Assembly: GCA_023400235.1 (NCBI GenBank)
Contig: JAEXFI010000041.1
Location: 102,798-134,797 of the forward strand
Length of the DNA stretch: 32,000 nt
Direction: 5' to 3'
From: Bacillota bacterium
GTDB taxonomy: Bacteria > Bacillota > Clostridia > Acetivibrionales > DSM-1351
Shown: positions 14,478 to 31,848 of the stretch, piece after piece
How the letters are laid out: the number at the start of each line of letters is the position of its first letter
Position numbering within the stretch: the stretch's first letter is position 1
Notes under the pieces: model-generated
Database searches by the model: none
Seen by the model: the letters and a program-made list of their open reading frames with translations, nothing else
What the model was told of the DNA's origin: nothing
Made by a program: the position numbers and the translations under genes

Positions 14478-14535
14478 GCACCATCCTTATAGTAAAAATA
14501 AAGTATCTAGAATATATTTACATAATCCAATTATT

Positions 14536-14567
14536 TAATGTAACAATATTATTATTATGTTACATTA
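14536..14567. repeat. Left recombinase core-type site: 10-bp arm / 12-bp AT spacer / inverted 10-bp arm
   Basis: TAATGTAACA-ATATTATTATTA-TGTTACATTA. The arms are a perfect 10-bp inverted repeat. The reverse complement matches the right site 29/32 by my count. Confidence 0.7.
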
Positions 14568-14669
14568 TTTTTTTCTCATAAGTGCACAATATAACTGCCA
14601 TGTGGCCATATGTATTTTTCAAAACCTTAAAAAAATTTAAATTATAAATGTATTAAAACCTTAAATATA

Positions 14670-14758: not shown

Positions 14759-15319
14759 ATGACAGTTGAACCCATACGAAATAAGACAAAAATTAAGCAG
14801 ATTTATTATTTTTTAAATGGTAAAGACCCCAAATACGGACTGCTATTTAAATTTGGATTGAACACGGGTTTGAGAATAAGCGATATTCTGTCGGTAAGAG
14901 TGAAAGATATTCTGAATGAAAAAGGTGAGTATCGTGATTATCTGACCTTAAAGGAAATGAAAACCGGGAAAGAGAAAAAAATCAAATTAAACGATTCCCT
15001 TCGTAAAAACATCAATTCTTATATAAAAATTTCCAAATTAAAGTATGATGCATACTTGTTTTCCAGTCAAAAAGGCGGATATATAGGCAGAGTACAAGCT
15101 TATAGGGTTTTAAAGGAAGCGGCGGTCTTCTGTAATGTGGAAAATTTCGGAACCCATAGTCTGAGAAAAACCTGGGGCTATTGGACTTATAACATGTCAA
15201 AATATAATGTTGGTTTGATAATGGATACCTTCAATCATAGTTCTCAAAGTATTACCCTCAGGTATATAGGTATTAACCAGGACCAGAAGGATGAGCTGTA
15301 TTCCTTGGTCCAGTTTTAA
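14759..15319 (+). CDS. Minimal tyrosine site-specific recombinase (catalytic domain only, 186 aa)
   Basis: Catalytic residues appear in order: R (NTGLRISD), K (KTGKEKKIKL), HxxR (THSLRKTWG), H (FNHSS) and Y (ITLRYIG). Only about 25 aa precede the catalytic domain. Confidence 0.85.
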   Translation: MTVEPIRNKTKIKQIYYFLNGKDPKYGLLFKFGLNTGLRISDILSVRVKDILNEKGEYRDYLTLKEMKTGKEKKIKLNDSLRKNINSYIKISKLKYDAYLFSSQKGGYIGRVQAYRVLKEAAVFCNVENFGTHSLRKTWGYWTYNMSKYNVGLIMDTFNHSSQSITLRYIGINQDQKDELYSLVQF

Positions 15320-15393
15320 CCTTTTTTGGATTAGCGCTTAAATATAGGTATAGAATTTGGTAAAATTATGTTGTATAATGACAAATAAGATGT

Positions 15394-15425
15394 TAATGTA
15401 ACATAATAATAAAATTGATACGTTA
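15394..15425. repeat. Right recombinase core-type site (inverted relative to the left site)
   Basis: TAATGTAACA-TAATAATAAAAT-TGATACGTTA. The second arm matches TGTTACATTA 8/10. The spacer matches the reverse complement of the left spacer at 11/12. Confidence 0.65.
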
Positions 15426-15436
15426 ATATTTTCCTC

Positions 15437-15500: not shown

Positions 15501-16358
15501 TTACATTGACAACAGGTTTGACAGCTCTCCAAACTGTTGTACCGAAAGTACTTCCCCTCTTATATTTTCCTTAAGCCCCATACTTTCGAGAATTTTTTTC
15601 AACTGCTCCTTATCCCTCTGAAGAAAGCCTGCATTTGAGAGTCCGTTTACAAGAGTCTTCCTCCGCTGTCCAAAGGATGCCTTTACAAGCCTGAAATACA
15701 GATTTTTGTCCTTTACCTGTACGGAGGGCTCTTCTAGTATATCCAGCCGTATTATTGTGGAATGTACTTCTGGCTGAGGAATAAAGCAATGTGGCGGAAC
15801 ATCAAATATTATGTCAGGGCTGGAATAAAACTGAACCGCCACGGACAACGCTCCGTAATCCTTTGTACCCGGTCCTGCAACCATCCTTTGAGCAACCTCC
15901 CTTTGCACCATGAAAACCATTCCCTGTACACCCTTTACTTCCTCCAGGAATCTCATAATTATGGGAGTAGTAATATAATACGGAAGATTTGCAACTACCT
16001 TCACAGCCTTTGTGCCGAACTTCTGTCCATACTCTGCTATAATAGCACCAATATCCGCTTTCATAACGTCGTTGTTTATTAGCTCTATATTTGAATACTC
16101 GCTCAAATTGTCGCGAAGAGCAGGTATGAGATGCTTATCTATCTCTATGGCTGCAACTCCTCTAGCTCTATTTGCCAGTTCTTTTGTCATACTGCCTATA
16201 CCCGGCCCAATCTCCAAAACCAGAGTATCCTTGTCAAGGCCTGCTGCGTCTACTATTTTCCTTACTACGCTATCGTCATTTAAAAAGTTCTGACCAAGAG
16301 ACTTGGTCAACCTGAGGTTATGCTTTTTTATTACATCCAGTGTATTGTTTCTGCTCAT
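15501..16358 (-). CDS. rsmA: 16S rRNA (adenine1518/1519-N6)-dimethyltransferase RsmA/KsgA
   Basis: LGQNFLNDDSVVRKIV, LEIGPGIGSMT and ANLPYYITTPI motifs. Start trimmed from GTG 16385 to ATG 16358 (MSRNNTLDV), because the extra MRSGGMEII residues derive from the repeat element. Confidence 0.9.
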   Translation of the reverse strand: MSRNNTLDVIKKHNLRLTKSLGQNFLNDDSVVRKIVDAAGLDKDTLVLEIGPGIGSMTKELANRARGVAAIEIDKHLIPALRDNLSEYSNIELINNDVMKADIGAIIAEYGQKFGTKAVKVVANLPYYITTPIIMRFLEEVKGVQGMVFMVQREVAQRMVAGPGTKDYGALSVAVQFYSSPDIIFDVPPHCFIPQPEVHSTIIRLDILEEPSVQVKDKNLYFRLVKASFGQRRKTLVNGLSNAGFLQRDKEQLKKILESMGLKENIRGEVLSVQQFGELSNLLSM

Positions 16359-16464
16359 TATTATTTCCATGCCCCCACTTCGCACAAAACTCCATGAAAG
16401 TCACGGCATGGAATCGGTGCCACATTTTTATCTGCTTCAAAATTTCTTTCAGCCTTTATCCTTC
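16359..16464 (-). repeat. Leader repeat, copy 1 (abuts the rsmA start codon)
   Basis: About 100 nt, near-identical to 21472-21577 and 31745-31848. Gene-sense core AGAAAUUUUGAAGCAGAUAAAAAUGUGGCACCGAUUCCAUGCCGUGACUUUCAUGGAGUUUUGUGCGAAGUGGGGGCAUGGAAAUAAUA immediately followed by AUG. Confidence 0.9.
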
Positions 16465-16520
16465 AAATAATTGATATTAATATTATTATATCTCATATAC
16501 ATGTTATTTGAAGGCCATTT

Positions 16521-17144
16521 TTATATTTTTCTGTATAATCGGTCAAAGGGATGAAATAATTCCAAAGTAAAATCAATTGCTTTAAATACAACGATGTATG
16601 CTATCAAGGAATAAATGGTATTTTCCCACCCAAATATAAAACCGGCTGCAACGACAATAACCAGATTCAGCAATATAAAATACTTGCTTGGGGAATAGTC
16701 TTTATTTATAAACCTTCCAGCTATCCTCCTGTGCTCTATGCCATCCAGGAAGCCTCCGTATTTAAGAATCAATCCCGACCCTACTCCAAGCAATATACCT
16801 CCCAGAATGGTAGACTGCAGTATGTCATAAGTTTCCCAGTTATCCGAATTTATAGCGGAAATCCAATAAATAAGTGATGTCAATGCAAATATTATGGTTA
16901 TTAGCTTCTGCTTTCCCCTGCGAAAATACTCAATGAGTATAAACGGGAAATTCAAAATAAAGATAATTGCACCCAAAGGTATCTCACTGATATAGCTCAA
17001 TACCACAGAAACCCCTATCAGCCCTCCACCGATGAGATTATGCGCTTTAAAGAATACCTCAAGACCTACGGCGGTCATAATTGACCCCACAAGAACAAAA
17101 ATGTATTTAATAATAACATAAGGAAGCATTCTTTTAAATTCCAT
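16521..17144 (-). CDS. YitT/YczE-like integral membrane protein (membrane domain only)
   Basis: Polytopic hydrophobic protein with G-rich helices (GLEVFFKAHNLIGGGLIG; GGILLGVGSGLILKYGG). Start trimmed to ATG 17144 (GGAGG 7 nt upstream). Confidence 0.6.
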   Translation of the reverse strand: MEFKRMLPYVIIKYIFVLVGSIMTAVGLEVFFKAHNLIGGGLIGVSVVLSYISEIPLGAIIFILNFPFILIEYFRRGKQKLITIIFALTSLIYWISAINSDNWETYDILQSTILGGILLGVGSGLILKYGGFLDGIEHRRIAGRFINKDYSPSKYFILLNLVIVVAAGFIFGWENTIYSLIAYIVVFKAIDFTLELFHPFDRLYRKI

Positions 17145-17177
17145 AGATCCACCTCCATTCAGCATCAAATATCATCC

Positions 17178-18392
17178 TCAAGGATTTAATTTTCGTTTCC
17201 TTCCCACCGTCTTACCATATATATAATTGCAGAAATTATATATCCGCTTTGATTCCTTTGTAAGCAATGGCGCAACTATAGCCAGAATCAGTACATAAAT
17301 TACCACAAAAGATTGCAGTACCGGCATAAGGCCGCCAGCCTTTCCCATATTGGCCATGATTATTGAAAATTCACCTCTTGCGGAGAGCGTAAAGCCCACA
17401 TTGGCTGAAGCGTGACTGGATATTTTAGATAAACGACCTGAGAACATTCCAGCCGCAATATTTCCGATAATGGTGAGAATTGCTGCTATGACAGCCATTA
17501 ACACTCCTCCTCCAAGGGATAGAGGATCAATGGTAAGACCGAAATTGAAAAAGAATATTGCCCCGAAGAAATCCCTGAAGGGCAGAATATTGTGCTCAAT
17601 CTTTTTTGCATGTGTAGATTCGGCCATGACCAATCCCACAAGCAGGGCTCCTATGGCCTCCGCAACATGGAGAGTTTCAGAAAAGCCGGCTACCACAAAC
17701 AACACGCCTATGACCACCAGCAGGAACAGCTCTGCCGAAGGTATGTCAAGTAATTTATCAATCGCTTTTATAACCCTCTTGCCTACTATAAGTATTGCCA
17801 GTATAAAGAACAGCGCGGTAAGCGATGTTGCAAGCACCCCCCATATAGACTTTGAACCGCTTAGCAGCAGTCCTGATAATATTGAGATGTGTATTGCAAT
17901 AAACAGATCATCAAACATTATCATGCCCATTATTACTTCCGTCTCAGGGTTTGCTGTGCGCTTGAGATCAATAAGCACCTTTGCTACTATTGCAGTGGAA
18001 GAACTTGTCATAATACCGCACACTACCAAGATCTCCTTAAAAGGCAAGCCCATCATCCATCCAAGCAGCAACCCGGAGGAGAAATTGATGAGAACATAAA
18101 AGGAACCTCCTATAAATACCGTCTTTCCAGACTTTATAAGTCGTGTTACAGAGAACTCAAGTCCTAAATAAAACAACAGAAACAATACGCCCAACCGACC
18201 CATAAAATTAATAAAGGTGGAGCTTTCAATAAATCTTAAATCTATAATTCCAAAACGTGGGGCGTGCGGCCCAACAGCCATCCCTATCAATATATAAAAA
18301 GGGATGACTGAAAAATTGAGCTTGTTAGATAAAAACCCCACTATGGCAATTAATGTAATCGCCACACCGATTTCAAAAACTAATATATCCAT
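17178..18392 (-). CDS. CPA2-family cation:proton antiporter (KhtU/Kef-like)
   Basis: Multi-TM protein, about 400 aa after start trimming, with a Na_H_exchanger-like pattern. Start trimmed to ATG 18392 (AGGAGG 5 nt upstream). Directly follows a KhtT-like regulatory subunit gene. Confidence 0.8.
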   Translation of the reverse strand: MDILVFEIGVAITLIAIVGFLSNKLNFSVIPFYILIGMAVGPHAPRFGIIDLRFIESSTFINFMGRLGVLFLLFYLGLEFSVTRLIKSGKTVFIGGSFYVLINFSSGLLLGWMMGLPFKEILVVCGIMTSSSTAIVAKVLIDLKRTANPETEVIMGMIMFDDLFIAIHISILSGLLLSGSKSIWGVLATSLTALFFILAILIVGKRVIKAIDKLLDIPSAELFLLVVIGVLFVVAGFSETLHVAEAIGALLVGLVMAESTHAKKIEHNILPFRDFFGAIFFFNFGLTIDPLSLGGGVLMAVIAAILTIIGNIAAGMFSGRLSKISSHASANVGFTLSARGEFSIIMANMGKAGGLMPVLQSFVVIYVLILAIVAPLLTKESKRIYNFCNYIYGKTVGRKRKLNP

Positions 18393-18417
18393 TCTACCTC
18401 CTAATTTTGTTACATTT

Positions 18418-18912
18418 TCATATCTGTCCTCCAAACAGGTAGTTTTTGAGCATCTTCAGATGTTTTCTCTCACCGATGACAACAATAGTTGATTCCGGCA
18501 AAAACTTATAATCCACCCCTGGATTTATATGCTTGCCGTGACCTTTCTCAACAGCAGCGATTATAGATGCCCCCGTCTTTTTACGTACCTGCATTTCCCC
18601 AATAGATCTGCCTACACAGTAGGACCCGGACTCTATCTTATACCATTCAATTATCAGATCATCCAAAGCAACATCAACCGTTTCCAGCGCCTTTGGCTTA
18701 TACGCAAGCCCCCCGATAATTGCGGCTACATATCTTGCTTCATTATCATCCAAGGTTATCATTGACACACTGTCCTCAGGCTGGTCGTGATAAAAGTGAT
18801 ACAATTCTCTTCGTCCATCATCATGTACTACAATGACCAGCTTATTGCCTTCGCGAACCTCTACCTCGAACTTTCTTCCGATATTCGGTAAATCAGATTC
18901 TCTAATAGTCAT
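18418..18912 (-). CDS. Antiporter regulatory subunit with C-terminal RCK_C/TrkA-C domain (KhtT-like)
   Basis: 164 aa. N-terminal LPNIGRKFEV...VVHDDGRRELY module plus SGSYCVGRSIGEMQVRKKTGASIIAAV...TIVVIG, typical of TrkA-C. GGAGG upstream of ATG 18912. Confidence 0.7.
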   Translation of the reverse strand: MTIRESDLPNIGRKFEVEVREGNKLVIVVHDDGRRELYHFYHDQPEDSVSMITLDDNEARYVAAIIGGLAYKPKALETVDVALDDLIIEWYKIESGSYCVGRSIGEMQVRKKTGASIIAAVEKGHGKHINPGVDYKFLPESTIVVIGERKHLKMLKNYLFGGQI

Positions 18913-19260
18913 AATTTAAATACCTCCGTTTTGAGTATAGACAATAGAAGTATACTGCGGTCAAAAATCATTATATATATCCTAACATCTCATTCTGACC
19001 GCTATTCTATTCATTTTTGGTTTTATGCCGTCTTTTGACAAACATATGTTCACCCCCTTCCAGATATGGCACTATTACATGTCTTTTCTGTACGCGTGTG
19101 GACACAGACAAAATATGATGTACTTTTGACTTTAATTAATAACAGATATTATGATCTGATAAAAGAAAATTACTAGAATTCTAGAAGTATCTTAAGCTTA
19201 TTTTAACCGATTTAAGGCAAAATTTCAACAATTAATTTTGTTTTTTCAATGCTAATGTTT

Positions 19261-19310
19261 AAATCTCGCTTTATCTCGTTATATCTCTGTTTATCTCTCA
19301 TTATCGCAAA
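19261..19310. repeat. Five direct repeats phased at exactly 10 bp (WWATCTC-N3)
   Basis: aaatctcgct / ttatctcgtt / atatctctgt / ttatctctca / ttatcgcaaa. Gene-sense (minus) motif GAGATWW. Confidence 0.7.
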
Positions 19311-19351
19311 TGTGATTTTCTCAAAATAGACTACTCGGGAAATAAACCTTC

Positions 19352-19386
19352 AAGAAAATAGGCTGATCCGAATAATCGAATCAGCC
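19352..19386 (-). terminator. Rho-independent terminator downstream of the yabE-like gene
   Basis: Minus RNA GGCUGAUUCG-AUUAUU-CGGAUCAGCC (10 bp including one G-U) followed by UAUUUUCUU. Confidence 0.6.
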
Positions 19387-19449
19387 CTAACAGTCCCTTT
19401 AATACTTATTTTCGCTTACGTACATTAAATTAATAACCGTATAAAATAA

Positions 19450-20562
19450 TCAATTAAGTACGTAAACCTTTACTTTCTTGACTCCCCAGGCGCTAACAGC
19501 ACTGCTGGTCTCAAGATACACATCTATCTTGTTTCCCTTTATTGCTCCTCCCACATCAGCCGCAACTGCATATCCATAGTCAGCCGCAACCCCGGGAAGC
19601 TCAACATAAACTCTGGTTCCCAGTGGGATAACGCGCGGGTCTACTGCTATAATACCTTTTCTTACTCTTGCACCGGTGGCAGTAATACCAAACCCGGGAT
19701 CTCCCGGATGCTTTCCGGTGTCTTCAAAAGAAGCCGTATATGAGGTGGCCCTCATATTTATAACCTTGGAATACCTTAATGTCTCGCCTCTGGATGTCTT
19801 GTAGTTTAAAACCGTACCTACTTCAACAATTTTGTCCAACGGATTTGTTGCAACAATATCCTTGACCAATTGTTTAGCAATCTGTTTTCCATTCTCATAA
19901 ACTACCGTATATGTTTTTTGTCGAATGCCTTCTTTTCCTTCTCTGACTGTATTTTTTAATCCTTTGTCCAATCTGTTGTTGTCTTTAGTAATTGTCTTAT
20001 ATGGTATGGTTATGGCTTCGGTGACTGTCTTTTCATCTACACGGATTATCGAAATGTTCATATCTGGTACAATTTTGTCTCCCATTTGAGACCCGACGAG
20101 CTTGTCATCCCCATCGACGCCTATGGCGTTGTCGCTTAGTACCTCTTTGACAGTATCCTTATACGTTTTAATTTCCAGCTCTTTCCCATCCACATTGATT
20201 ATTACAGGTACCGCTCTCTTTATATTTATCCGGTTCTCCTGTATTCTTGCAAGCTTCGAGTCAAACGGCACACTGATATAATCTTCAACTGCCACGGTTA
20301 CGCCTGTCTGCTCCAGTACTTCTCTTACTGTTGCTTTCATTGTCTCTACTGCAATTTCACGTCCATTGTCGTTGATTACCACGTGTCTTTTCAACCCATT
20401 AAAAACAAAGACACCTGCAGTAACGGATATAACAACGGCAATACATATAATTGCAATATCCAATGTTCTGATTTTGAATAAATTCCCGTGTTCCTTCCTT
20501 CCGAAATTACGGAAATTCATTTGTGAAAAATACCTTTTAATATTCTTCGCAATCGGTATCAT
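19450..20562 (-). CDS. yabE: YabE-like cell-wall protein (TM anchor, DUF348 repeats, G5, C-terminal 3D domain)
   Basis: C-terminal 3D-domain pattern ATSYTA...GITATGARVRKGIIAVDPRVIPLGTRVYVE...AADVGGAIKGNKIDVY, preceded by a G5-like region. Start trimmed to ATG 20562 (AGGAGG upstream). Confidence 0.8.
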   Translation of the reverse strand: MIPIAKNIKRYFSQMNFRNFGRKEHGNLFKIRTLDIAIICIAVVISVTAGVFVFNGLKRHVVINDNGREIAVETMKATVREVLEQTGVTVAVEDYISVPFDSKLARIQENRINIKRAVPVIINVDGKELEIKTYKDTVKEVLSDNAIGVDGDDKLVGSQMGDKIVPDMNISIIRVDEKTVTEAITIPYKTITKDNNRLDKGLKNTVREGKEGIRQKTYTVVYENGKQIAKQLVKDIVATNPLDKIVEVGTVLNYKTSRGETLRYSKVINMRATSYTASFEDTGKHPGDPGFGITATGARVRKGIIAVDPRVIPLGTRVYVELPGVAADYGYAVAADVGGAIKGNKIDVYLETSSAVSAWGVKKVKVYVLN

Positions 20563-20605
20563 AAATACTAACCTCCTGTTAGAAATATTCAAAGGGACTG
20601 TGACT

Positions 20606-20634
20606 ATTTTATTCTAAGCGGTTTATTTTGTCAA
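20606..20634 (-). promoter_or_regulatory. Candidate sigma-A promoter for the yabE-like gene
   Basis: Minus strand TTGACA-N17-TAAAAT (plus tgtcaa 20629-20634, atttta 20606-20611). Confidence 0.5.
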
Positions 20635-20757
20635 ATGTATTGCCTAGAAAATGGTTAGTTTTTTCCAATTCAATCCCTCATTAGCAATTATTAACTGGAT
20701 TTTAGTATATTATTCTTTACCTGTATTTATTACACAATAAAAGCTTGAAACCCTTAC

Positions 20758-21471
20758 TCAGGGCTTATCCGACAACTGGGTAATACGCCATTCGCCCGCT
20801 GCTGCATCAAACTGCATGGTCAAATATTTAATATTTTCTCCCTGCTTATATAGCACTTTTGGAACCTCCTCCATGCCTGCATTGGGGGATTCCGGCTTAT
20901 CCACCTGGAAAACTGCTTCAAACTGGATTTTTGCAAGATGTTCTGCATCGGTCATATCGGTGTATATTTTGAAAGCTTTTAGATCAATTGATTTTATTTC
21001 ATTTTGATAATTTGATTTAAAGATGTTGGGGCTGCTTAATATTTCATCATTTGACAGTATGCTTATATAGGTCTGAGCAGTTTTAAAGTTTTTTGAATTT
21101 ACCGCATCTGCCCATTTCTTGACGATTGCCTGGAAGGGTTCCACATTCAGATTTTTTTTCAGCATCAGTATGATATCTCTTTTATCGGACAGCTCCTGCT
21201 TGATTTGCTGATTTTCCGAGGTGAGCAGATAATTGGTGTTCTTAATGCGAGAATTTTCCTCTGTGAGAGAAGCCAGCTTTTCAGCAAGCTCCTTGTTTTG
21301 CTTATCAAGGGTATTAATCTTCTCCCCCAGAGTGTCAATACTCAGGTTTTTTGAATTGCTCAGATCCTGAAAATTTTCAAGCTGTTTTTCTCTGTCCCAC
21401 AGCAGATAATTGAATGAAATAAGTATTGATATCAGAAATACAAACACAACAATAATAATAAACTTTTTCAT
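20758..21471 (-). CDS. Hypothetical membrane-anchored coiled-coil protein
   Basis: MKKFIIIVVFVFLISILISF signal-anchor, then a heptad-rich segment (about residues 30-110) and a C-terminal globular domain. Start trimmed from GTG 21498 to ATG 21471, because the upstream residues come from the repeat. Confidence 0.75.
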   Translation of the reverse strand: MKKFIIIVVFVFLISILISFNYLLWDREKQLENFQDLSNSKNLSIDTLGEKINTLDKQNKELAEKLASLTEENSRIKNTNYLLTSENQQIKQELSDKRDIILMLKKNLNVEPFQAIVKKWADAVNSKNFKTAQTYISILSNDEILSSPNIFKSNYQNEIKSIDLKAFKIYTDMTDAEHLAKIQFEAVFQVDKPESPNAGMEEVPKVLYKQGENIKYLTMQFDAAAGEWRITQLSDKP

Positions 21472-21577
21472 AATTATTTCCATGCCTCCACTTCGCACAT
21501 AACTCCATGAAAGTCATAGCATGGAATCGGTGCCACACTTTTATCTGCTTCAAAATTTCTTTCAACCTTACTCTCCT
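21472..21577 (-). repeat. Leader repeat, copy 2 (abuts the start codon of the coiled-coil membrane protein; begins 24 nt after the tatD stop)
   Basis: Same element as 16359-16464, with about 7 substitutions by eye, including GGGGG to GGAGG in the SD. Confidence 0.9.
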
Positions 21578-21601
21578 TGAGAACCAATTAAGACTTATTG
21601 T

Positions 21602-22369
21602 TTATTTCAATCCGAATACAGTTTTTGCATTCTTCAGTGTTGTCTCGGCAACCTCCGACTCACTTATCCCCTTGATTTCAGCAATTTTCCGGATAACATG
21701 AACCAAGTAGCCCGAATTGTTCCTTTTTCCCCTGTAAGGCTCAGGTGAAAGATAGGGGCAGTCAGTTTCAACCAGAAGCTTTTCAAGCGGCACAGCTTCC
21801 ACGACCTCAACAGTTTTCCTGGCATTTTTAAAAGTGACAGGTCCCCCAATGGCAATATACAGATTCAACTTGAGCATATCCATCGCCATCTGGGCACTTC
21901 CGGAAAAGCAATGAAATATTCCGCCCACCTGCCGGACCTCAGTCTTTTTTAATATATTCACAGTATCTTCATGGGCATCCCTGTCATGAATAATTATAGG
22001 CAGCTTCAGCTCTCCGGCCAGCTCTATCTGCCTCTGGAACCAATACCTCTGGATATCCCTGGGAGAATTGTCATAATAATAATCCAGCCCGATTTCGCCT
22101 ATTGCCACAACCTTCTGATGCTGGGACAAAAGCCTGATTTTGCTTATAATATCCTCATTCATTTTTTCAGCATCGTGAGGATGTATACCCAACGCAGCAT
22201 AGACAAAGGGGTATTTCTCCGCCAGCTCTATGGTTTTGTCCAGAGATTCGGGACTGGCGCTGGCATTTAAAATATATGCTATTCCATCCTGATGAAGCTG
22301 CTTCAACAAGGCGTCTCTGTCCTCGTCGAAGCGTTCATCATCATAATGTGCATGTGTATCAAAGATCAA
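21602..22369 (-). CDS. tatD: TatD-family metal-dependent DNase/hydrolase (YabD)
   Basis: (M)IFDTHAHYDD, GEIGLDYYY, IIHDRDAHEDT and VETDCPYL motifs. TTG start with GGGGG 7 nt upstream. Confidence 0.9.
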   Translation of the reverse strand: MIFDTHAHYDDERFDEDRDALLKQLHQDGIAYILNASASPESLDKTIELAEKYPFVYAALGIHPHDAEKMNEDIISKIRLLSQHQKVVAIGEIGLDYYYDNSPRDIQRYWFQRQIELAGELKLPIIIHDRDAHEDTVNILKKTEVRQVGGIFHCFSGSAQMAMDMLKLNLYIAIGGPVTFKNARKTVEVVEAVPLEKLLVETDCPYLSPEPYRGKRNNSGYLVHVIRKIAEIKGISESEVAETTLKNAKTVFGLK

Positions 22370-22380
22370 TTTAAAGCCCC

Positions 22381-24438
<2,058 letters not shown>

Positions 24439-24478
24439 TTACAATATATAATTTATATTAATTAATTGTTACCTAACA

Positions 24479-24487
24479 TGGTATAAT
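24479..24487 (+). promoter_or_regulatory. Extended -10 promoter (TGgTATAAT) for the ytpB-like gene
   Basis: TGGTATAAT at 24479-24487, followed 4 nt later by a perfect 9-bp hairpin/palindrome (24491-24513). Confidence 0.4.
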
Positions 24488-24597
24488 TTTATAGTAGTAT
24501 TCATTACTACTATACATATTTGTTTTCGATTTTTCAAGGAGAATATTGAGGCAAACCGGAGACATTGGCAGAAAAGGACTGAAAGGGCCTCTTACCC

Positions 24598-25656
24598 ATG
24601 GTGAGTTTACTAAGAAGCTTAAGTTATTCTATAAAATACAATAAAATCATATATCCTTCCATAGACAAGAAATTCAAGGAATACAGGACATATACAAAGC
24701 GGATACGCAAGCTGTCGGTGAAAGCCACCGCCCGGGAAGCTCTGGATAAAAGCAGGTTTGATGCCGCTGTTTCATCCATATGCCTTTTGTATGACAAGGT
24801 CAATATGGAGCTGGCAGCGGAGGTATTGTTTTCCTTTGATGCCATCGTCCAATACCTGAATTCTATCTGTCTCAGGTCCTACACAGGTACCGAGCCCTTT
24901 CTGAAGCTCATATTTTCCTCCTTAAGGGATGCTTTGAACCTGCGTACCGATGCCTATGAAAACTACTTTACATTTTTTCCTTCCAAGGACGATGACGGCT
25001 ATCTGACAATACTGGTGGAAAAATGCCGACAAAAAGTACTCCTGCTGCCGTCCTATAATGTAATCCGGGACCATTTGGCTGCTTTTATTTCACTGTTCAT
25101 AGATTTGCAGGTTACGAAGTTTTCATCGGATGATAATGCCAAAGAGGTAAATCTCATAAATTGGAGTACTGCCCATGGACAAAAGTATTCGGAGCTTTCC
25201 TGCTGGGAATACTGCATGGCTGTGGACTCCACCCTGAGCATCCGGCTGCTGCTGGCCATGGCCACGGATCCGGAACTTTCCGAGCAAAAGGCAGAAAACC
25301 TCAACAGTACTTTTTTTCCCTGGATTTGCTGCATACAGAAAATCCTTGAGGGCTATATCAGCTATAATGATGATTTATTCTCAGGAAACATAAATTATGA
25401 TTTTTATTATGAAAATCTTAAAGAGTATGAAAACAGGATAATTTTCTTTACGAACAGGGCCTTAAAATTCAAGACCGGGCAATGGAGCCGTACCCGTACG
25501 GCGGTGAAATTACTGCTGGGTATTTATATTACTCATCCCAAGGCCAGCGAGGGCATGAACAGCATTACAAGCAAGGCACTTTTAAAAGCCGGAGGCAGGG
25601 GAATGTTTTTTTACACCTGGGCCCTCAAGCTGCTGCGCTCAAAAATATACCTCTAG
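24598..25656 (+). CDS. DUF2600 / YtpB-like protein (tetraprenyl-beta-curcumene synthase family), divergent
   Basis: Size (352 aa), helical composition and the segment ILEGYISYNDDLFSGNINYDFYY resemble the family region LLDxxIDQxEDxxxGxLNFxxYY. This assignment is from memory of the family, not a search. An in-frame TGA 15 nt upstream fixes the start at ATG 24598 or GTG 24601. The SD is weak. Confidence 0.5.
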   Translation: MVSLLRSLSYSIKYNKIIYPSIDKKFKEYRTYTKRIRKLSVKATAREALDKSRFDAAVSSICLLYDKVNMELAAEVLFSFDAIVQYLNSICLRSYTGTEPFLKLIFSSLRDALNLRTDAYENYFTFFPSKDDDGYLTILVEKCRQKVLLLPSYNVIRDHLAAFISLFIDLQVTKFSSDDNAKEVNLINWSTAHGQKYSELSCWEYCMAVDSTLSIRLLLAMATDPELSEQKAENLNSTFFPWICCIQKILEGYISYNDDLFSGNINYDFYYENLKEYENRIIFFTNRALKFKTGQWSRTRTAVKLLLGIYITHPKASEGMNSITSKALLKAGGRGMFFYTWALKLLRSKIYL

Positions 25657-25684
25657 CAGTGTATTTTAATTTTGCAGGCCACGA

Positions 25685-26215
25685 TTACCCGAAAATGAAC
25701 CTGCATGCCCAGAGTGACGCAATAACGCTTATTATGTCGGCCATTATTGCCGCTAACAGGGTATACCTGATATTTTTCACACCCACAGAGCCATAGTAGA
25801 CCGCAAGTGTATAGAAGATGGTTTCTGTGGACCCCATCATTGTGGCAGCCACACGGCCTTCATAGGTATCTGGACCGAAGGCCTTTATAATATCGGTTAC
25901 AAATGCAAAGGAAGCACTTCCGGAAATAGGTCTCAAAAGCGCAAGCGGCGCTACTTCCGGCGGCATTCCCAGCAAATCGATCACCGGACGCAGCAGGAAG
26001 GTGAGAATTTCAAGAGCCCCGGAGGCTTTGAAAACTCCAACCGCCACCAGCAGACCTACCAGGGACGGCATTATTTTGATTACGGTATCTATGCCCTCCT
26101 TAGCCCCATCTATGAACAGTTCAAAGGACTTTAGCTTTTTTAAAGCTGCCGCACACAATATTACTATAAATATTGCAGGGATTGCATAATCAGAGATGTG
26201 TCTTATTACTCCCAT
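25685..26215 (-). CDS. spmB: Spore maturation protein B (nucleoside-recognition-domain membrane protein)
   Basis: AIPAIFIVILCAAALKKLKSFELFIDGAKEGIDTVIKIMPSLVGLLVAVGVFKASGA pattern. Immediately downstream of spmA. Confidence 0.8.
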   Translation of the reverse strand: MGVIRHISDYAIPAIFIVILCAAALKKLKSFELFIDGAKEGIDTVIKIMPSLVGLLVAVGVFKASGALEILTFLLRPVIDLLGMPPEVAPLALLRPISGSASFAFVTDIIKAFGPDTYEGRVAATMMGSTETIFYTLAVYYGSVGVKNIRYTLLAAIMADIISVIASLWACRFIFG

Positions 26216-26224
26216 AGCCCACCT

Positions 26225-26824
26225 TTACCGAGATTGACTTTTTTCCTCATTCCATACCCTGGACAGAAGTTTTGCCGCTATTACCCCCATTATGGTGGCA
26301 CACACCGATGCCATCCATATGCATACAATTATTTCAGCCGGCTTTTTAGAGCCCTCTGCAGTACGCAGAGCAATTATACTGGCAGGTACCAGTTGTATTG
26401 CCGCAGTATTCATAACCAGAAACATACACATGGAGTCCGTGGCGGTTTTCTTGTCTTTGTTCAAGGACTGGAGCTGGCTCATGGCTTTTATTCCCAGAGG
26501 GGTGGCAGCATTCCCCAGCCCAAGAAAATTTGCCACCAGATTCATTACGATGGCCCCAAGTGCAGGATGATTTTTAGGGATATCCGGGTACAAAAATGTC
26601 ATAACAGGCCGGACCAACCTGCCTATTCCCGCCACCAATCCGCTTTTTTCCGCCACCTTCATCAGGCCTGTCCAGAGACACATCACTCCCAGAAGACCTA
26701 TGCACACGGTTACTGCGGACTGGGCTGAATCCATGGCAGCCTTTGTGACCTCATCTATCCTTCCATTAATTATCCCCACTGCAAAGCCTACAAGCAGTAA
26801 GCCCATCCATATATAATTAAGCAT
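26225..26824 (-). CDS. spmA: Spore maturation protein A
   Basis: MLNYIWMGLLLVGFAVGIINGRIDEVTKAAMDSAQSAVTVCIGLLGVMCLWTGLMKVAEKSGL pattern. Start trimmed to ATG 26824 (GGGAG 5 nt upstream). Confidence 0.8.
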   Translation of the reverse strand: MLNYIWMGLLLVGFAVGIINGRIDEVTKAAMDSAQSAVTVCIGLLGVMCLWTGLMKVAEKSGLVAGIGRLVRPVMTFLYPDIPKNHPALGAIVMNLVANFLGLGNAATPLGIKAMSQLQSLNKDKKTATDSMCMFLVMNTAAIQLVPASIIALRTAEGSKKPAEIIVCIWMASVCATIMGVIAAKLLSRVWNEEKSQSR

Positions 26825-27143
26825 TTTGTCTCCCATCTACACGCACAGCGCGTACGCAAATAGTAATGAAAGGCACGCAGTGGCTTTCGTTGCGTGAAAT
26901 CCACGTTGATTTGCCACATGTATCTTTCACACTAACCGCTCCGTCATTTATACACTGTCTGCAGGTTTCCCTTATTATATATGTGGACAGAGTAAGATTT
27001 ATGTTTTCTCATTTAAATTATGCTGCATTTAATGTGTTTTTGAAGTTTGTTGACCGTAACCTGACACGATTGCAATGCTAGTTCCAGCAATTAGCTTATT
27101 AATCAATAAAAGTCAGGCAGCTACTGCTTCACGGCAGTTTTTA

Positions 27144-27184
27144 TGTCGAAATTAAATTGCATATTTTGTCGAATAATTGTCGAA
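27144..27184 (+). promoter_or_regulatory. Cluster of three perfect Spo0A boxes (TGTCGAA), direct orientation
   Basis: TGTCGAA at 27144-27150, 27167-27173 and 27178-27184, upstream of abrB. Confidence 0.6.
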
Positions 27185-27373
27185 TATTCTCATGTCTTGC
27201 CGTTGAATTCCCAGTATTATTTTTGAAGCTTTGTAATTTTATCTTATGAAAAAAATATTCATAAAATATTTACATTTGCTTTTTAGCAGGCACCATTCTT
27301 TGAAAGGCCTATACCGCCTATATTCCTTATTTTTGCATATTTAAAATTTTTTAATTTTTTTGTAAAATGAGCG

Positions 27374-27402
27374 TTGACGTTTATTGGAATTTATGGTATT
27401 AT
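27374..27402 (+). promoter_or_regulatory. abrB sigma-A promoter
   Basis: TTGACG (27374-27379), 17-nt spacer, then TGgTATTAT (extended -10, hexamer 27397-27402). An overlapping TATAAT lies at 27400-27405. Confidence 0.55.
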
Positions 27403-27412
27403 AATAACGAAG

Positions 27413-27422
27413 TTTGTCGAAA
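27413..27422 (+). promoter_or_regulatory. Spo0A box with extended consensus (TTTGTCGAAA) just downstream of the abrB -10
   Basis: Exact TTTGTCGAAA at 27413-27422. This position is analogous to the 0A boxes downstream of the B. subtilis abrB promoters. Confidence 0.6.
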
Positions 27423-27453
27423 TATGAAGTGTATAATTTAGGAGGTTATTTTT

Positions 27454-27693
27454 ATGAAATCTACAGGTATTGTAAGAAAAGTTGACGAATTGGGAAGAGT
27501 TGTTCTCCCTATCGAATTGCGCAGAACTTTTGATATTGCTGAAAAGGATGCATTGGAAATCTATGTTGATGAATCTACTATTATATTAAAGAAGTATGAG
27601 CCAGCATGTATCTTCTGCGGAAATGCCAAGGATGTACAGGTATACAAGGGAAAGAACATATGTCCTGAATGTATGAAAGAATTAAAGAAGTAA
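27454..27693 (+). CDS. abrB: Transition-state regulator AbrB (SpoVT/AbrB swapped-hairpin N-domain)
   Basis: MKSTGIVRKVDELGRVVLPIELRRTFDI, the canonical AbrB N-terminus. AGGAGG 8 nt upstream. Confidence 0.9.
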   Translation: MKSTGIVRKVDELGRVVLPIELRRTFDIAEKDALEIYVDESTIILKKYEPACIFCGNAKDVQVYKGKNICPECMKELKK

Positions 27694-27708
27694 TTTTTTA
27701 AGCACTAT

Positions 27709-27734
27709 AAAAAGAGCCAAGGCTCTTTTTTTTT
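27709..27734. terminator. Bidirectional terminator between the convergent abrB and rsmI
   Basis: AAAAAGAGC-CAAG-GCTCTTTTT followed by further T residues. The A-run on the other side serves the minus strand. Confidence 0.7.
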
Positions 27735-27783
27735 GCCCAAAATTGATTATGCCTGGTTATTCTTTAGCACAAATGCTGAGAGT

Positions 27784-28617
27784 TTATTTTTTCATAACCG
27801 AATTATAAACATCTCTTTTGTTCATTCCCCTGTCTTCCGCCACCTTCTTTATTGCCTCCTTTTTTGAAAGGCCCTCACCTGTATACCTTTCCACATGCTC
27901 CTCAATACTTATGTCAGCAAATTTATCCATCTCCTGTTCCAGTAGCACCTTTTGATCCTGGCCTTCAACGACCACAACAAACTCACCCTTGGGAGCTTCC
28001 GACTGATACCTTTCGGCTGCCTGGGACAGATTGCATCTTATTACCTCTTCATACCGTTTGGTAAGTTCCCTGGCAAGGGCTATCCGCCTATCTCCCCAGG
28101 CATTGTACATATCCTTGAGGGTATAGGGAAGCTTATGGGGAGCCTCATAAAATATTATTGTCCTGGTTTCGTCTTTAAGCTGTCTTAGCCTCTCCTGCCG
28201 GATTCTCTTGTTCATGGGAAGAAAGCCTTCAAATACAAACCTTCCCGTTGGCAGCCCTGATATGACCATTCCCGTGACTGCCGCCACAGGTCCGGGTATC
28301 ATTGTCACCTTTACCTCATTTTCTATGCAAAGCCTTACCAAATCCTCACCGGGATCGGATATTCCAGGGGTACCGGCATCCGATACCAATGCAATGTCTT
28401 TTCCCTGCAGCAGTTGCTCAATCAGATAATTGCCCTTTACTATCTTATTGTGCTCATAATAGCTTACCAGTGGTTTTTTTATTTCAAAGTGGTTCAGCAG
28501 TTTTATTGTCTGCCTGGTGTCCTCCGCAGCTATGAGCTCCACTTCCTTCAAGGTGTTGATTGCTCTTATGGTTATGTCCTGAAGATTTCCGATTGGTGTG
28601 GCAACCAGATACAGCAT
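27784..28617 (-). CDS. rsmI: 16S rRNA (cytidine1402-2'-O)-methyltransferase RsmI (YabC)
   Basis: MLYLVATPIGNLQDITIRAINTLKEVELIAAEDTR and SDAGTPGISDPG motifs. The ORF-track start at 28635 is a TTG, so I prefer ATG 28617. Confidence 0.9.
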   Translation of the reverse strand: MLYLVATPIGNLQDITIRAINTLKEVELIAAEDTRQTIKLLNHFEIKKPLVSYYEHNKIVKGNYLIEQLLQGKDIALVSDAGTPGISDPGEDLVRLCIENEVKVTMIPGPVAAVTGMVISGLPTGRFVFEGFLPMNKRIRQERLRQLKDETRTIIFYEAPHKLPYTLKDMYNAWGDRRIALARELTKRYEEVIRCNLSQAAERYQSEAPKGEFVVVVEGQDQKVLLEQEMDKFADISIEEHVERYTGEGLSKKEAIKKVAEDRGMNKRDVYNSVMKK

Positions 28618-28659
28618 TCCTTTTTCCCCGTCCAAGTTTCTCTTCCTTCCTGGCTTTTC

Positions 28660-29394
28660 TTACCTGCCATAAATTCTATTTATCTCCTGGGAATATGTCC
28701 CGTCGGCATTATATACATACAGGGGCTCCATCACCTTAAGTTCGGGCTTTCCGCCTCGGCTCCCCTTTATCAGTATCATTGTGGGTTTCTTGAAGGGCTT
28801 GGGATGAACCATCCTCAAATACTTGGGCTCAATGCCGAAGCTCCTCATACACCATACTATGTCAGCCAGTCTTTCAGGCCTGTGTACCATTGCCAGCTGT
28901 CCTCCGGGAGCAAGCAGAGCTCCCGCCGCCTCTACAACATCCTCCAGCGTACACAGTATCTCATGTCTTGATATAGCCTTGCTGTCACGAGGATTTACAA
29001 GTCCGCAGCCTTTGTTTGTATAGGGTGGATTTGATACCACTACATCGAAGCTGGACTTTCCAAAATACCTGCTATATTCCTTTACATCTCCGCATATTAT
29101 TTCAACCCTGTTTTCAAGGCCGTTGAGGCTCACACTTCTTGAAGCCATTTCTGCTACAGTCTCCTGTATTTCCAACCCCACAACAGCCGACGCCTGTGTT
29201 TTGCCTGCCAGCAAAATTGGTATTATGCCTGTGCCCGTCCCTATGTCCAGAACTCTGTGCCTCTTTTTAACATCTGCAAAATCAGACAGTAACACTGCAT
29301 CCACTCCAAAGCAAAAGGCCTTTGGGTCTTGTATGAGCTTTAGCCCGTTGAGCTGCAAATCATCTACTCTTTCATTGTCTTTTATCTCTACCAT
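28660..29394 (-). CDS. trmN6: tRNA1(Val) (adenine37-N6)-methyltransferase-like SAM methyltransferase (YabB/YfiC family)
   Basis: VLDIGTGTGIIPILLA (motif I) and VVSNPPY (NPPY catalytic motif). Synteny next to rsmI. Confidence 0.8.
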   Translation of the reverse strand: MVEIKDNERVDDLQLNGLKLIQDPKAFCFGVDAVLLSDFADVKKRHRVLDIGTGTGIIPILLAGKTQASAVVGLEIQETVAEMASRSVSLNGLENRVEIICGDVKEYSRYFGKSSFDVVVSNPPYTNKGCGLVNPRDSKAISRHEILCTLEDVVEAAGALLAPGGQLAMVHRPERLADIVWCMRSFGIEPKYLRMVHPKPFKKPTMILIKGSRGGKPELKVMEPLYVYNADGTYSQEINRIYGR

Positions 29395-29487
29395 GAAAAC
29401 TGCTTCCTTAGTAAAAAATTATTTCCTGTTATATCAATAGGTATAACCTGTAAATATTGCTTTCTCTAACCTTGGTACAATATGCTG

Positions 29488-29528
29488 AAAAAAAGGTCAG
29501 ATAAAGGCATTATGGCCTTTATCTGACC
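29488..29528 (-). terminator. Rho-independent terminator downstream of the ferredoxin gene
   Basis: Perfect 14-bp stem GGTCAGATAAAGGC / GCCTTTATCTGACC (29495-29528) with a 6-nt loop. The minus-strand transcript continues into UUUUUUU (29488-29494). Confidence 0.8.
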
Positions 29529-29543
29529 TTCATTACACAAAAA

Positions 29544-29714
29544 CTATTGCTGTTGAGGAGCATCAACAGGACATACGTTAGCACAAGCGCCGCACTCAAT
29601 GCAAGCATCAGCGTCTATTACATATACGCTATCACCAGCAGCTATACAGGATACTGGGCATTCTGATTCACATGCTCCACAGCTGATGCATGATTCATTA
29701 ATTAAATATGCCAT
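29544..29714 (-). CDS. 2x[4Fe-4S] clostridial-type ferredoxin (56 aa; below the ORF-track size cutoff)
   Basis: My translation: MAYLINESCISCGACESECPVSCIAAGDSVYVIDADACIECGACANVCPVDAPQQQ, with two CxxCxxCxxxCP motifs. AGGAGG 9 nt upstream of ATG 29714. Confidence 0.9.
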   Translation of the reverse strand: MAYLINESCISCGACESECPVSCIAAGDSVYVIDADACIECGACANVCPVDAPQQQ

Positions 29715-29775
29715 TTTAAAAACACCTCCTAGTATTTAAGAAAAAACAAGTCTTTGAAACATGTTTTTCGCTCTT

Positions 29776-29804
29776 ATTTTACCACCATTTATTGCAAATG
29801 ACAA
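29776..29804 (-). promoter_or_regulatory. Candidate sigma-A promoter for the ferredoxin gene
   Basis: Minus strand TTGTCA-N17-TAAAAT with TG at the extended -10 position (TGgTAAAAT). Confidence 0.5.
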
Positions 29805-29864
29805 ACTAAATTCAATATTTTTTTATTTGTCAAGGCCTTTATCAAGACCTAGACTAAAAAACCT

Positions 29865-30740: not shown

Positions 30741-30766
30741 TAATAAATTCCTTTCTATCAATACAC

Positions 30767-31744: not shown

Positions 31745-31848
31745 AATTATTTCCATGCCCCCACTTCGCACAAAACTCCATGAAAGTCACGGCATGGAAT
31801 CGGTGCCACATTTTTATCTGTATCAAAATTTCTATTAACCTTCTCTCC
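31745..31848 (-). repeat. Leader repeat, copy 3 (abuts the holB start codon)
   Basis: Identical to copy 1 across the about 75-nt core. It differs only in the 5' (upstream) third and at one base next to the ATG. Confidence 0.9.

Follow-up and report, generated by a model that had tools for sequence, protein, structure and literature searches.

The locus analysed here raises a simple question: why do three genes for unrelated proteins, all in one stretch of clostridial DNA of 32,000 nucleotides (called the window, by which the whole stretch is meant), appear in a list of open reading frames with the same N-terminus, MRSGGMEIIM? An initial annotation ascribed the shared residues to a conserved repeat of about 100 nt in front of the genes, and took this repeat for a structured translational leader. 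The first part of that proposal has been borne out by our analysis; the second has not.

The Repeat Family in the Window

A repeat search of the window finds one family of 102-nt direct repeats, at 16355-16456, 21468-21569 and 31741-31842, in which copies 2 and 3 are each 93% identical to copy 1. Three copies of ~100 nt at this level of identity cannot have originated by chance. All three are on the minus strand and have, as had been stated, the same orientation relative to the gene that follows. Copy 1 lies directly 5' of rsmA (RrnaAD; 15501-16358, minus strand), copy 2 directly 5' of a gene for a 237-aa membrane protein, here called gene x (20758-21471, minus strand), and copy 3 directly 5' of holB (DNA_pol3_delta2 and DNApol3-delta_C; 30767-31744, minus strand). 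The rsmA and holB genes are supported by Pfam; gene x belongs to no Pfam family, its product has a hydrophobic N-terminus, and it is located downstream of tatD. The genes upstream of the copies are those for YitT and TatD and a DUF327 gene, the last according to the gene calls of relatives. The list of open reading frames contains GTG-started versions of 294, 246 and 334 aa, which are 9 codons longer than the three genes, and it is because these versions run 9 codons into the repeat that they share an N-terminus.

When the copies are aligned in gene sense they are conserved from AAGGTTGAAAG to GGAAATAAT(A/T)ATG, the 3' limit being also written GGCATGGAAATAAT(A/T)ATG, and the flanks are unrelated. 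With nhmmer, the 10 kb flanking the window on each side yielded no further copies.

Distribution

The scan of one genome per species was performed with the exact 18-mer GTGGCACCGATTCCATGC, and the copy numbers obtained are lower bounds. Eight matches came from Ruminiclostridium hungatei DSM 14427, spread over 5 contigs, and one contig was matched in the metagenome-assembled genome "Bacillota bacterium OH_CBrB_49". This contig shares gene order and 96% identity with the window, and its source is referred to below as the sister strain. Six other loci share only the 18-mer with the family and were discarded as chance matches. Contig MZGX01000002 of R. hungatei is syntenic with the window at 87.4% nucleotide identity over 20.9 kb, and from this synteny and identity we conclude that the window comes from a sister species of R. 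hungatei. The HolB protein of the window is 100% identical to proteins of several ENA metagenome assemblies. The hosts of the repeat are a small set of cellulose-degrading clostridia.

R. hungatei carries at least 8 copies, at loci other than the window sites, and more are present in metagenomic relatives. Seven of the 8 R. hungatei copies directly precede real genes, the targets being hisH, hisF, a Tex-like gene (tex), iorB (the beta subunit gene after a 617-aa iorA-like ORF) and genes for secreted or membrane proteins. Searches with the peptide encoded by the element gave 2 proteins among 5.8e9 and 3 among 1.84e9 representatives (P0121 again being one of them); P0121 and P0122 led to further copies at loci L027 and L028, and two other peptide matches point to at least one further site (P0244). 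A two-anchor pattern scan of metagenomes gave 4 matches, all by chance and without extended similarity, and nothing was found in a scan of viral contigs or in BLAST searches of plasmids and phages. This makes the family a rare one in the data examined, with a low copy number and a distribution limited to a narrow Ruminiclostridium lineage. A literature search gave no description of such a repeat in Ruminiclostridium.

Filled and Empty Sites

All three window sites are found empty, with an intact canonical ribosome binding site (RBS), in close relatives. The rsmA site is empty in R. hungatei (L035, GAAGGAGAAATAATGAGC) and at loci L015-L019, and filled in the sister strain (GAAGGAGAAAGGTTGAAAG...GGCATGGAAATAATAATGAGC). 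For gene x, where synteny is lost in more distant relatives, the empty site is supplied by R. hungatei (CAAGGAGAGTAATTATGAAAAAG), to be compared with CAAGGAGAGTAAGGTTGAAAG...GGCATGGAAATAATTATGAAAAAG in the window. The holB site is empty in L029 (HolB 88%; GGATGGAGAGTAATATGTTAGGG, against GGATGGAGAGAAGGTTAATAG...GGCATGGAAATAATTATGTTAGGG in the window). This site comes from a more distant relative, and two substitutions are needed to fit it to the AA model of the junctions given below.

Each window site has a net gain of 94 nt, and 2-3 nt at the junctions are ambiguous. The inserted DNA occupies 16362..16455 in copy 1 (AA, 2 nt ambiguous), 21475..21568 in copy 2 (TAA ambiguous) and 31748..31841 in copy 3, in each case on the minus strand and between the native Shine-Dalgarno sequence (SD) and the ATG of the gene. 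BLAST alignments of R. hungatei with the window break exactly at 16362/16455 and 21476/21560. The termini read [AA]GGTTGAAAG...GGCATGGAAAT[AA], which would fit either an element of 94 nt inserted without target duplication or one of 92 nt with a 2-bp AA repeat or recombination core. Most R. hungatei copies measure 95 nt, against 94 nt in the window genome. Terminal inverted repeats (TIRs) are absent, the sole inverted repeat inside the element being its internal hairpin; a 7-nt TIR candidate, ATTATTT/AAATAAT, was rejected as it involves copy-specific flank.

The initial annotation let the repeat end exactly at each ATG. It does adjoin the gene start, but the comparison with empty sites shows that the inserted DNA stops 2-4 nt short of it, and it follows from this comparison that the ATG, the last bases of the spacer and the SD are part of the host gene rather than of the repeat. 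For rsmA the native SD is GAAGGA (16459..16464, minus strand; GAAGGAG in the sister strain and relatives); it is conserved in the empty sites and is now ~100 nt from the ATG. That of gene x, AAGGAG (21573..21578, minus strand), is unchanged in the empty site of R. hungatei, and that of holB, GGAG within GGATGGAGAG (31845..31848, minus strand), is unchanged in L029. The rsmA start codon (16356..16358, minus strand) is likewise native, the same ATG being used in element-free relatives. A promoter-like sequence, TTCAAA-16-TATAAT (16485..16512, minus strand), upstream of the rsmA SD is kept in the empty relatives, which places copy 1 within the 5' UTR; no promoter-like site was found inside the element.

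Neither diverged nor partial copies were detected with nhmmer at the loci of the relatives L015-L019, L029, L030 and L035. The element is precisely bounded, and it has been inserted recently, independently and in one orientation into RBS spacers of two sister species. The suggestion that an oriented element had been mobilised in front of housekeeping genes is in this way supported by the empty sites of the relatives and by the R. hungatei copies elsewhere.

Target Specificity

The target logo was built from 13 sites with 3 filled/empty pairs, and ~20 kb was read around each site. Deleting the element in silico restores, at every gene-associated site, GGAG or GGAGG followed by 5-9 nt and the ATG. 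Between element and ATG the register is fixed as AA-NN-ATG, except for one copy in which it is 1 nt shorter; the gap between SD and element varies, at 0-4 nt. The hairpin end is followed by AA or TAA in 13/13 sites, and at 10 of the 12 independent sites the element is SD-adjacent and separates the native SD from the ATG. In the same DNA an SD-like motif lies at most 10 nt upstream of only 3.3% of all TAANNATG sites (P = 1e-13), or of 6% of those outside long ORFs (P = 4e-11). When the occupied sites are returned to the pool of available sites (~25%) the value becomes roughly 1e-4 to 1e-5, by our own estimate.

One exception is L028/L027, where 23 nt separate the element from a downstream gene for a small membrane protein which has its own SD. 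AA-AT-ATG is still present there, and L028 retains AA-NN-ATG behind the element even though the gene does not start at this ATG; L027 is the one tandem case, with a duplication that takes in the element and part of the gene. The other exception, L012, is antisense between two genes, has a mutated hairpin and no ATG, and has GAAGG 4 nt upstream. The placement and orientation of the copies are non-random; the random pattern of a plain MITE or REP, the counter-reading that had been named at the outset, was not seen among the copies found.

Anatomy of the Element and the Mini-ORF

From 5' to 3' the order is: native SD, AAGG, TTG, an A-rich stretch of 27 nt, an internal ATG, the core, a loop, a run of G, the 3' arm of the hairpin, and AU-AA-NN-AUG. 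The TTG is CTG in window copy 1 and TTA in window copy 3 and in L012, and the internal ATG is GTG in copy 2. The most conserved part is the core, AUGUGGCACCGAUUCCAUGCC (16404..16425, minus strand, in copy 1), with ~3 substitutions in 15 copies. The loop after it is variable and the G-run takes the forms GGGGG, GGAGG, GGGAGG and up to 7 G, followed by the 3' arm GGCAUGGAA. A GGRGG/GGGAGG motif is kept in all copies, 13 nt before the gene AUG.

In L001, L006, L011 (both copies), L014 and copy 1 of L020 the TTG is located 4-8 nt after the native SD and opens an ORF of 30 codons, which in all of these ends with a TAA 1-2 nt before the ATG of the gene. In L007 the ORF starts at the internal ATG and runs to the same stop, P0244 likewise ends with ...AWK and a stop, and even the decayed, non-genic copy in L012 has kept frame and stop, with TTA for TTG and no ATG after it. 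A stop abutting the gene start is found in 7 copies of the R. hungatei type and in L020 copy 1, but not in the three window copies. In these, as in L013, the G-run is shorter by 1 nt. Their frame passes the ATG at +1 and meets a stop inside the gene, 5 nt in for L013, 11 nt in for copy 3 and more than 40 nt in for copies 1 and 2. In copy 1 the mini-ORF frame extends over 16318..16452 (minus strand), from CTG at 16450-16452 over the internal ATG at 16423-16425 and past the rsmA ATG in +1 to TAA at 16318-16320; the sister strain has one more nucleotide in this copy and is back in the TAA-stop class.

A short upstream ORF starting at the internal ATG had been offered as a second way to read the repeat. 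The frame exists as described and is better supported than the switch once the start is moved to the TTG 27 nt further upstream, directly behind the native SD, and the R. hungatei copies are taken into account; it is degenerate in the window copies. Indels of 1 nt shift the frame in L007, L013, the window copies, L027 and L028, and the substitutions are distributed 11/11/18 over codon positions 1/2/3, which is not significant. With frequent indels and no clear bias in codon position the peptide itself is not conserved. The codon-level selection to be expected of a leader-peptide or uORF attenuator is not seen in the 11/11/18 distribution, in the frame-shifting indels or in the losses of start codons. 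In the sister strain, moreover, a deletion of 36 nt fuses the tatD stop codon to copy 2 and removes the native SD of gene x together with the element's TTG (5' part of the copy); gene x is intact.

RNA Structure and Constraint

The two pairings that had been pointed out are both present in the sequence: a 9-bp helix, called P1, between UUCCAUGCC (16405-16413) and GGCAUGGAA (16365-16373), spanning 16365..16413 on the minus strand in copy 1 and enclosing the G-run with GGRGG, and an alternative pairing of the upstream arm with CAUGGA(G). P1 is part of the minimum free energy (MFE) structure both as RNA and as DNA, with z-scores of only -2.0 and -1.9. Over 15 copies it can be paired in 98.5% of cells and the alternative helix in 98.1%; the inner helix of the MFE structure is broken in about half of the copies. 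The gene AUG is mostly unpaired in the predicted ensembles.

The proposed covariation check gave no two-sided pair change in P1, the inner helix or the alternative helix among the 15 copies, shuffle controls were not exceeded, and RNAalifold reported no compensatory pair. Since P1 and the alternative helix are essentially invariant, covariation has no power here and neither supports nor refutes them; invariant helices are equally expected of a DNA hairpin that is recognised by a recombinase. The element had been considered unlike any known RNA family, and in agreement with this Rfam gave no match in the 32-kb window at gathering thresholds, and at E up to 10 over 16300-16560 only two chance matches outside the element.

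Comparison of the window with the 96% identical sister strain gives a divergence of 11.7% for fourfold-degenerate sites, 2-5% for the element copies and 0-9% for nearby intergenic DNA. As the nearby intergenic DNA is equally conserved, no special constraint on the element can be claimed.

A Model for Insertion and Tolerance

The reading we prefer is that of a small non-autonomous mobile element which targets RBS spacers and is tolerated there because translation can pass through it; we would give this a probability of about 0.55. The filled and empty sites demonstrate the first step: the element enters the spacer in a single orientation, 0-4 nt downstream of a GGAG-type SD and in the AA-NN-ATG register. 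For the persistence of the insertions we infer from the layout of the element that translation may pass through it. The displaced native SD, 4-8 nt before the TTG, would open the 30-codon mini-ORF, which leads through the 9-bp hairpin and would in most R. hungatei copies stop at a UAA 2 nt before the gene AUG. Terminating ribosomes could then reinitiate on the gene (translational coupling), the hairpin being melted in transit. In the window copies this layout has drifted, the copies being 1 nt shorter and TTG having become CTG or TTA in two of them. Translation of these genes probably depends on a weaker coupling by overlap, on the internal GGRGG located 13 nt before the AUG, or on both. The core and the hairpin would, most simply, be the sequences required for mobilisation in trans by a putative recombinase or transposase. 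No transposase or autonomous partner was found in the loci read (~20 kb around each site).

The part of the model that concerns coupling is at variance with some of the observations. The mini-ORF is poorly maintained, the TTG has been lost in window copies 1 and 3, and copy 2 of the sister strain has lost both native SD and TTG and is still followed by an intact gene. The positions of the L028 and L012 copies also count against the model.

A more far-reaching version is offered tentatively, as an idea which we would not expect to hold as a whole. The element would be "RBS-homing": its machinery would recognise the sequence SD-spacer-ATG as such, from the fixed AA-NN-ATG register and the purine-rich SD that directly precedes it, and the element would carry a bicistronic adaptor, composed of the TTG mini-ORF, the hairpin and the stop at the gene start, which neutralises the cost of insertion.

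Alternative Explanations

The element could instead be a portable translation-initiation region similar to the Neisseria REP2 repeats, with GGRGG as its own SD and direct initiation inside the element, in which case neither the native SD nor the mini-ORF would matter. We consider this unlikely, although several observations can be accommodated. The GGRGG/GGGAGG motif is universal, the AUG is predicted to be accessible, gene x of the sister strain is left with the element after losing its native SD, and L028 keeps AA-NN-ATG next to the element at an ATG which is not a gene start. The spacing is the main difficulty: GGRGG is located 13 nt before the gene AUG and 1 nt before the in-frame AUG, and SD-AUG spacings of 13 nt and 1 nt are poor for Firmicutes. 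Part of the motif is also hidden in the P1 stem, the empty sites already have the ATG and the bases of the spacer, and the element offers no promoter-like site.

That the element is an exapted cis-regulatory RNA leader, i.e. a switch sequestering SD or AUG, a thermosensor or a leader binding a protein or ligand, with the UUCCAUG-CAUGGA and UUCCAUGCC-GGCAUGGAA helices excluding each other, appears quite unlikely to us. Both helices can indeed form in nearly all copies (98% of cells), conservation is much higher in the 20-nt core than elsewhere in the element, and orthologous copies diverge less (2-5%) than fourfold-degenerate sites. Against these stand the conservation of neighbouring intergenic DNA to the same degree, folding z-scores of only about -2, the want of compensatory changes beyond the shuffle controls and of any Rfam match, and target genes with no common function (rsmA, holB, hisH/F, tex, iorB, membrane proteins). 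The predicted inner helix is broken in about half of the copies, and the sister strain has lost the 5' part of copy 2. The nearest relatives, finally, have ordinary RBSs without the element at the same genes. The SD-sequestering switch with mutually exclusive helices, which was the main inference of the initial annotation, is for these reasons not upheld.

A module for mRNA processing or stability, in which the hairpin provides or blocks entry for an RNase (III, Y or J) and so would uncouple the next cistron of an operon or alter its stability, as for REP and Correia elements, would agree with the stable and invariant stem and with the position of several copies inside operons (iorA/iorB, the his operon, tatD/x). 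It would leave the fixed ATG register and the placement after the SD unexplained, and copy 1 is in a monocistronic 5' UTR behind its own promoter; we regard such a role as very unlikely. A dispersed DNA-binding site for one regulator seems highly improbable: the conserved core TGGCACCGATTCCA is a near-palindrome (TGGNANCGNTNCCA), loosely like a LacI/CcpA operator and by eye resembling the cre consensus, but at two or three of the defined positions it departs from cre, the target genes are a mixed set, and a recognition site for a transposase or recombinase predicts the same conservation. A sigma-54 promoter of the -24/-12 type (by eye TGGCAC is present and the GC element is 2 nt out of register) and bypassing of the T4 gene 60 type, intron-like or intein-like readings (there is no upstream coding frame to bypass from) were rejected.

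Relation to Known Systems

As a mobile element tolerated in RBS spacers, the repeat resembles most closely the MIRU repeats of mycobacteria, more than it does a riboswitch. Mycobacterial interspersed repetitive units (MIRUs; Supply et al. 1997, after the summaries in PMC12548453 and PMC3184786) are dispersed repeats of 40-100 bp, oriented with the genes and often intercistronic, which insert at start codons and have an internal ORF coupled to the gene (PMC12548453). To judge from these descriptions, both types of repeat have the orientation of the gene, have filled and empty sites in relatives, seem to be mobile and insert at start codons (PMC12548453, PMC3184786). In MIRUs, and in most R. hungatei copies of the element though not in the window copies, the internal ORF ends beside the downstream start, which would permit coupling and make the insertion tolerable. 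The differences are that MIRUs are said to couple by a -4 overlap and to have ends that overlap both neighbouring genes, whereas our element is located in the SD-ATG spacer, uses the native SD and stops 1-2 nt before the ATG; and that tandem VNTR arrays, tetranucleotide direct repeats and imperfect TIRs are features of MIRUs, whereas the element occurs as single copies with an AA repeat of at most 2 bp and no TIRs. Its copy number is low, unlike that of MIRU. The MIRU host is a GC-rich actinobacterium and ours an AT-rich Firmicute, and no relationship in sequence is to be expected.

The Neisseria REP2 and Borrelia IR repeats share with the element the lack of TIRs, the internal stem-loops and the fusion to starts of unrelated ORFs (PMC3184786). 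REP2, of 120-150 bp, is described there as carrying promoter, RBS and ATG itself (PMC3184786). Our element has none of these as its own: it lacks a promoter-like site, leaves the native SD upstream of itself and precedes an ATG that the empty sites already have. Because of its lineage, its placement between SD and ATG with re-use of the native SD, the absence of arrays, TIRs and tetranucleotide repeats, and the absence of an own promoter and ATG, we would count the element as a member of neither the MIRU nor the REP2 family.

The features of a classical MITE, TIRs and a DDE-type target duplication, are absent, with an AA repeat of 2 bp at most. A conserved short flanking target together with the absence of TIRs and target duplication is what the element has in common with the IS200/IS605 type. 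The likeness to elements derived from IS200/IS605 (PATEs, REP/RAYT) or to IS110 would comprise the lack of TIRs, the minimal duplication, the hairpin at an end, the AA/TAA flank, the strict orientation and the sequence-specific target. The ends of IS200/IS605 elements each carry one hairpin, and their targets are 4-5 nt. The element differs from them in having a single hairpin, at the gene-proximal end, and a longer and looser target, SD-spacer-ATG. Neither a Y1 transposase nor a DEDD recombinase was identified in the loci read; the mobilising enzyme, if found, could be a recombinase with an unusual RBS-like target.

Rickettsia palindromic elements are small mobile repeats which insert in frame inside coding sequences and become part of the translated protein (PMC10969869). 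Their survival, as would be that of our element, is dependent on compatibility with translation, but the element described here lies outside the reading frame of the gene. In synthetic bicistronic designs an SD is followed by a short leader ORF that ends at the gene start, and structure is removed by the transit of ribosomes (PMC12548453). The layout resembles that of the element, with the difference that the designs are engineered and have a second SD in the leader ORF at proper spacing, whereas the GGRGG of the element is 13 nt from the AUG.

The spacer between SD and start codon can evidently be hit repeatedly by a mobile element without killing the gene, even an essential one such as holB. 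If the coupling layout is functional, the copies constitute a natural experiment on reinitiation, on the SD-to-AUG separation that is tolerated and on ribosomal unwinding in Firmicutes. If homing to RBSs were true as well, it would represent a class of target specificity and a strategy of host compatibility undescribed for mobile elements of Firmicutes, and a natural counterpart of the synthetic bicistronic designs. The element marks very recent differences between strains and species in Ruminiclostridium. It also misleads gene callers into spurious shared N-termini and fusions, examples of which are the 307-aa RsmA P0001 and the proteins P0121 and P0122.

Core, G-run and reading frame

Conservation within the element is highest in the core TGGCACCGATTCCA, which in copy 1 lies at 16407-16420 on the minus strand. 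By eye the core is a near-palindrome, TGGNANCGNTNCCA, loosely resembling an operator of the LacI/CcpA type. A sigma-54-like TGGCAC lies within the core as well, but the GC element is 2 nt out of register; this too is an observation made by eye.

The G-run of the element (16374-16378 in copy 1; columns 82-88 of alignment A4, which holds 15 copies) is a homopolymeric or nearly homopolymeric tract which differs between copies and strains, being found as GGGGG, GGAGG, GGGAGG, GGGGGG and GGGGGGG. A change of a single nucleotide in this run switches the mini-ORF, the 30-codon frame of the element, among three states: a stop just before the ATG of the gene, a +1 overlap, and an in-frame fusion with the gene.

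Gene calls reading into or out of the element are found among public proteins (P0001, 307 aa; P0249, 334 aa; P0121, P0122, P0243 and P0244). Public RsmA and HolB proteins carry spurious N-terminal extensions, P0122 is an N-terminal fusion, and P0121 is a C-terminal read-through. Public "proteins" of 43-47 aa are the mini-ORF alone.

Clustering and rearrangement of copies

The three copies in the window lie within 16 kb (16362-31841) and there are none in the flanking 10 kb on either side. The his operon of R. hungatei has two copies 1.5 kb apart (L011:6204-7835), and only 8 matches were obtained from that genome. This clustering suggests local hopping of the element.

At copy 2, 36 nt are missing from the sister strain (96% identical) relative to window positions 21569-21604 (loci compared: L020:4836-4845, L031 and L004); the deletion is bounded by two TTGAAA repeats. 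Through it the 237-aa gene has lost its native SD and copy 2 its first ~10 nt, and the stop codon of tatD (TTGAAATAA) now directly adjoins copy 2, with the consequence that gene callers give the gene as 254 aa.

A tandem duplication is found at the end of a metagenomic contig (L027:1-690; ENA LEMO22 scaffold_164). The duplicated unit of 324 nt consists of the element and the 5'-terminal ~220 nt of a gene for a small membrane protein; the junction is exactly at the 5' end of the element (CTCAAAA|AGGTTGAAAG), and positions 1-40 hold a partial, diverged element. The duplication could have arisen by end-specific recombination or nicking, or else could be an assembly artefact at the contig end.

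Neighbouring features

An ORF of 186 aa of the Phage_integrase family (14759-15319, plus strand) adjoins rsmA in all relatives examined. It is flanked by two copies of a palindromic hairpin (14535-14575 and 15393-15433), each followed by a T-run (TAATGTAAC...GTTACATTA TTTTTT). The hairpins are probably bidirectional terminators; alternatively, a small recombinase between inverted, repeated hairpins might form an invertible switch, situated upstream of a chemotaxis operon.

The 3D/G5-domain gene (19450-20592) is 99.6% identical to that of the sister strain, with one difference in 167 fourfold sites; all genes neighbouring it are 95-97% identical and differ at 9-18% of such sites. Judged from these sequence comparisons, this suggests a recent recombination tract at the gene.
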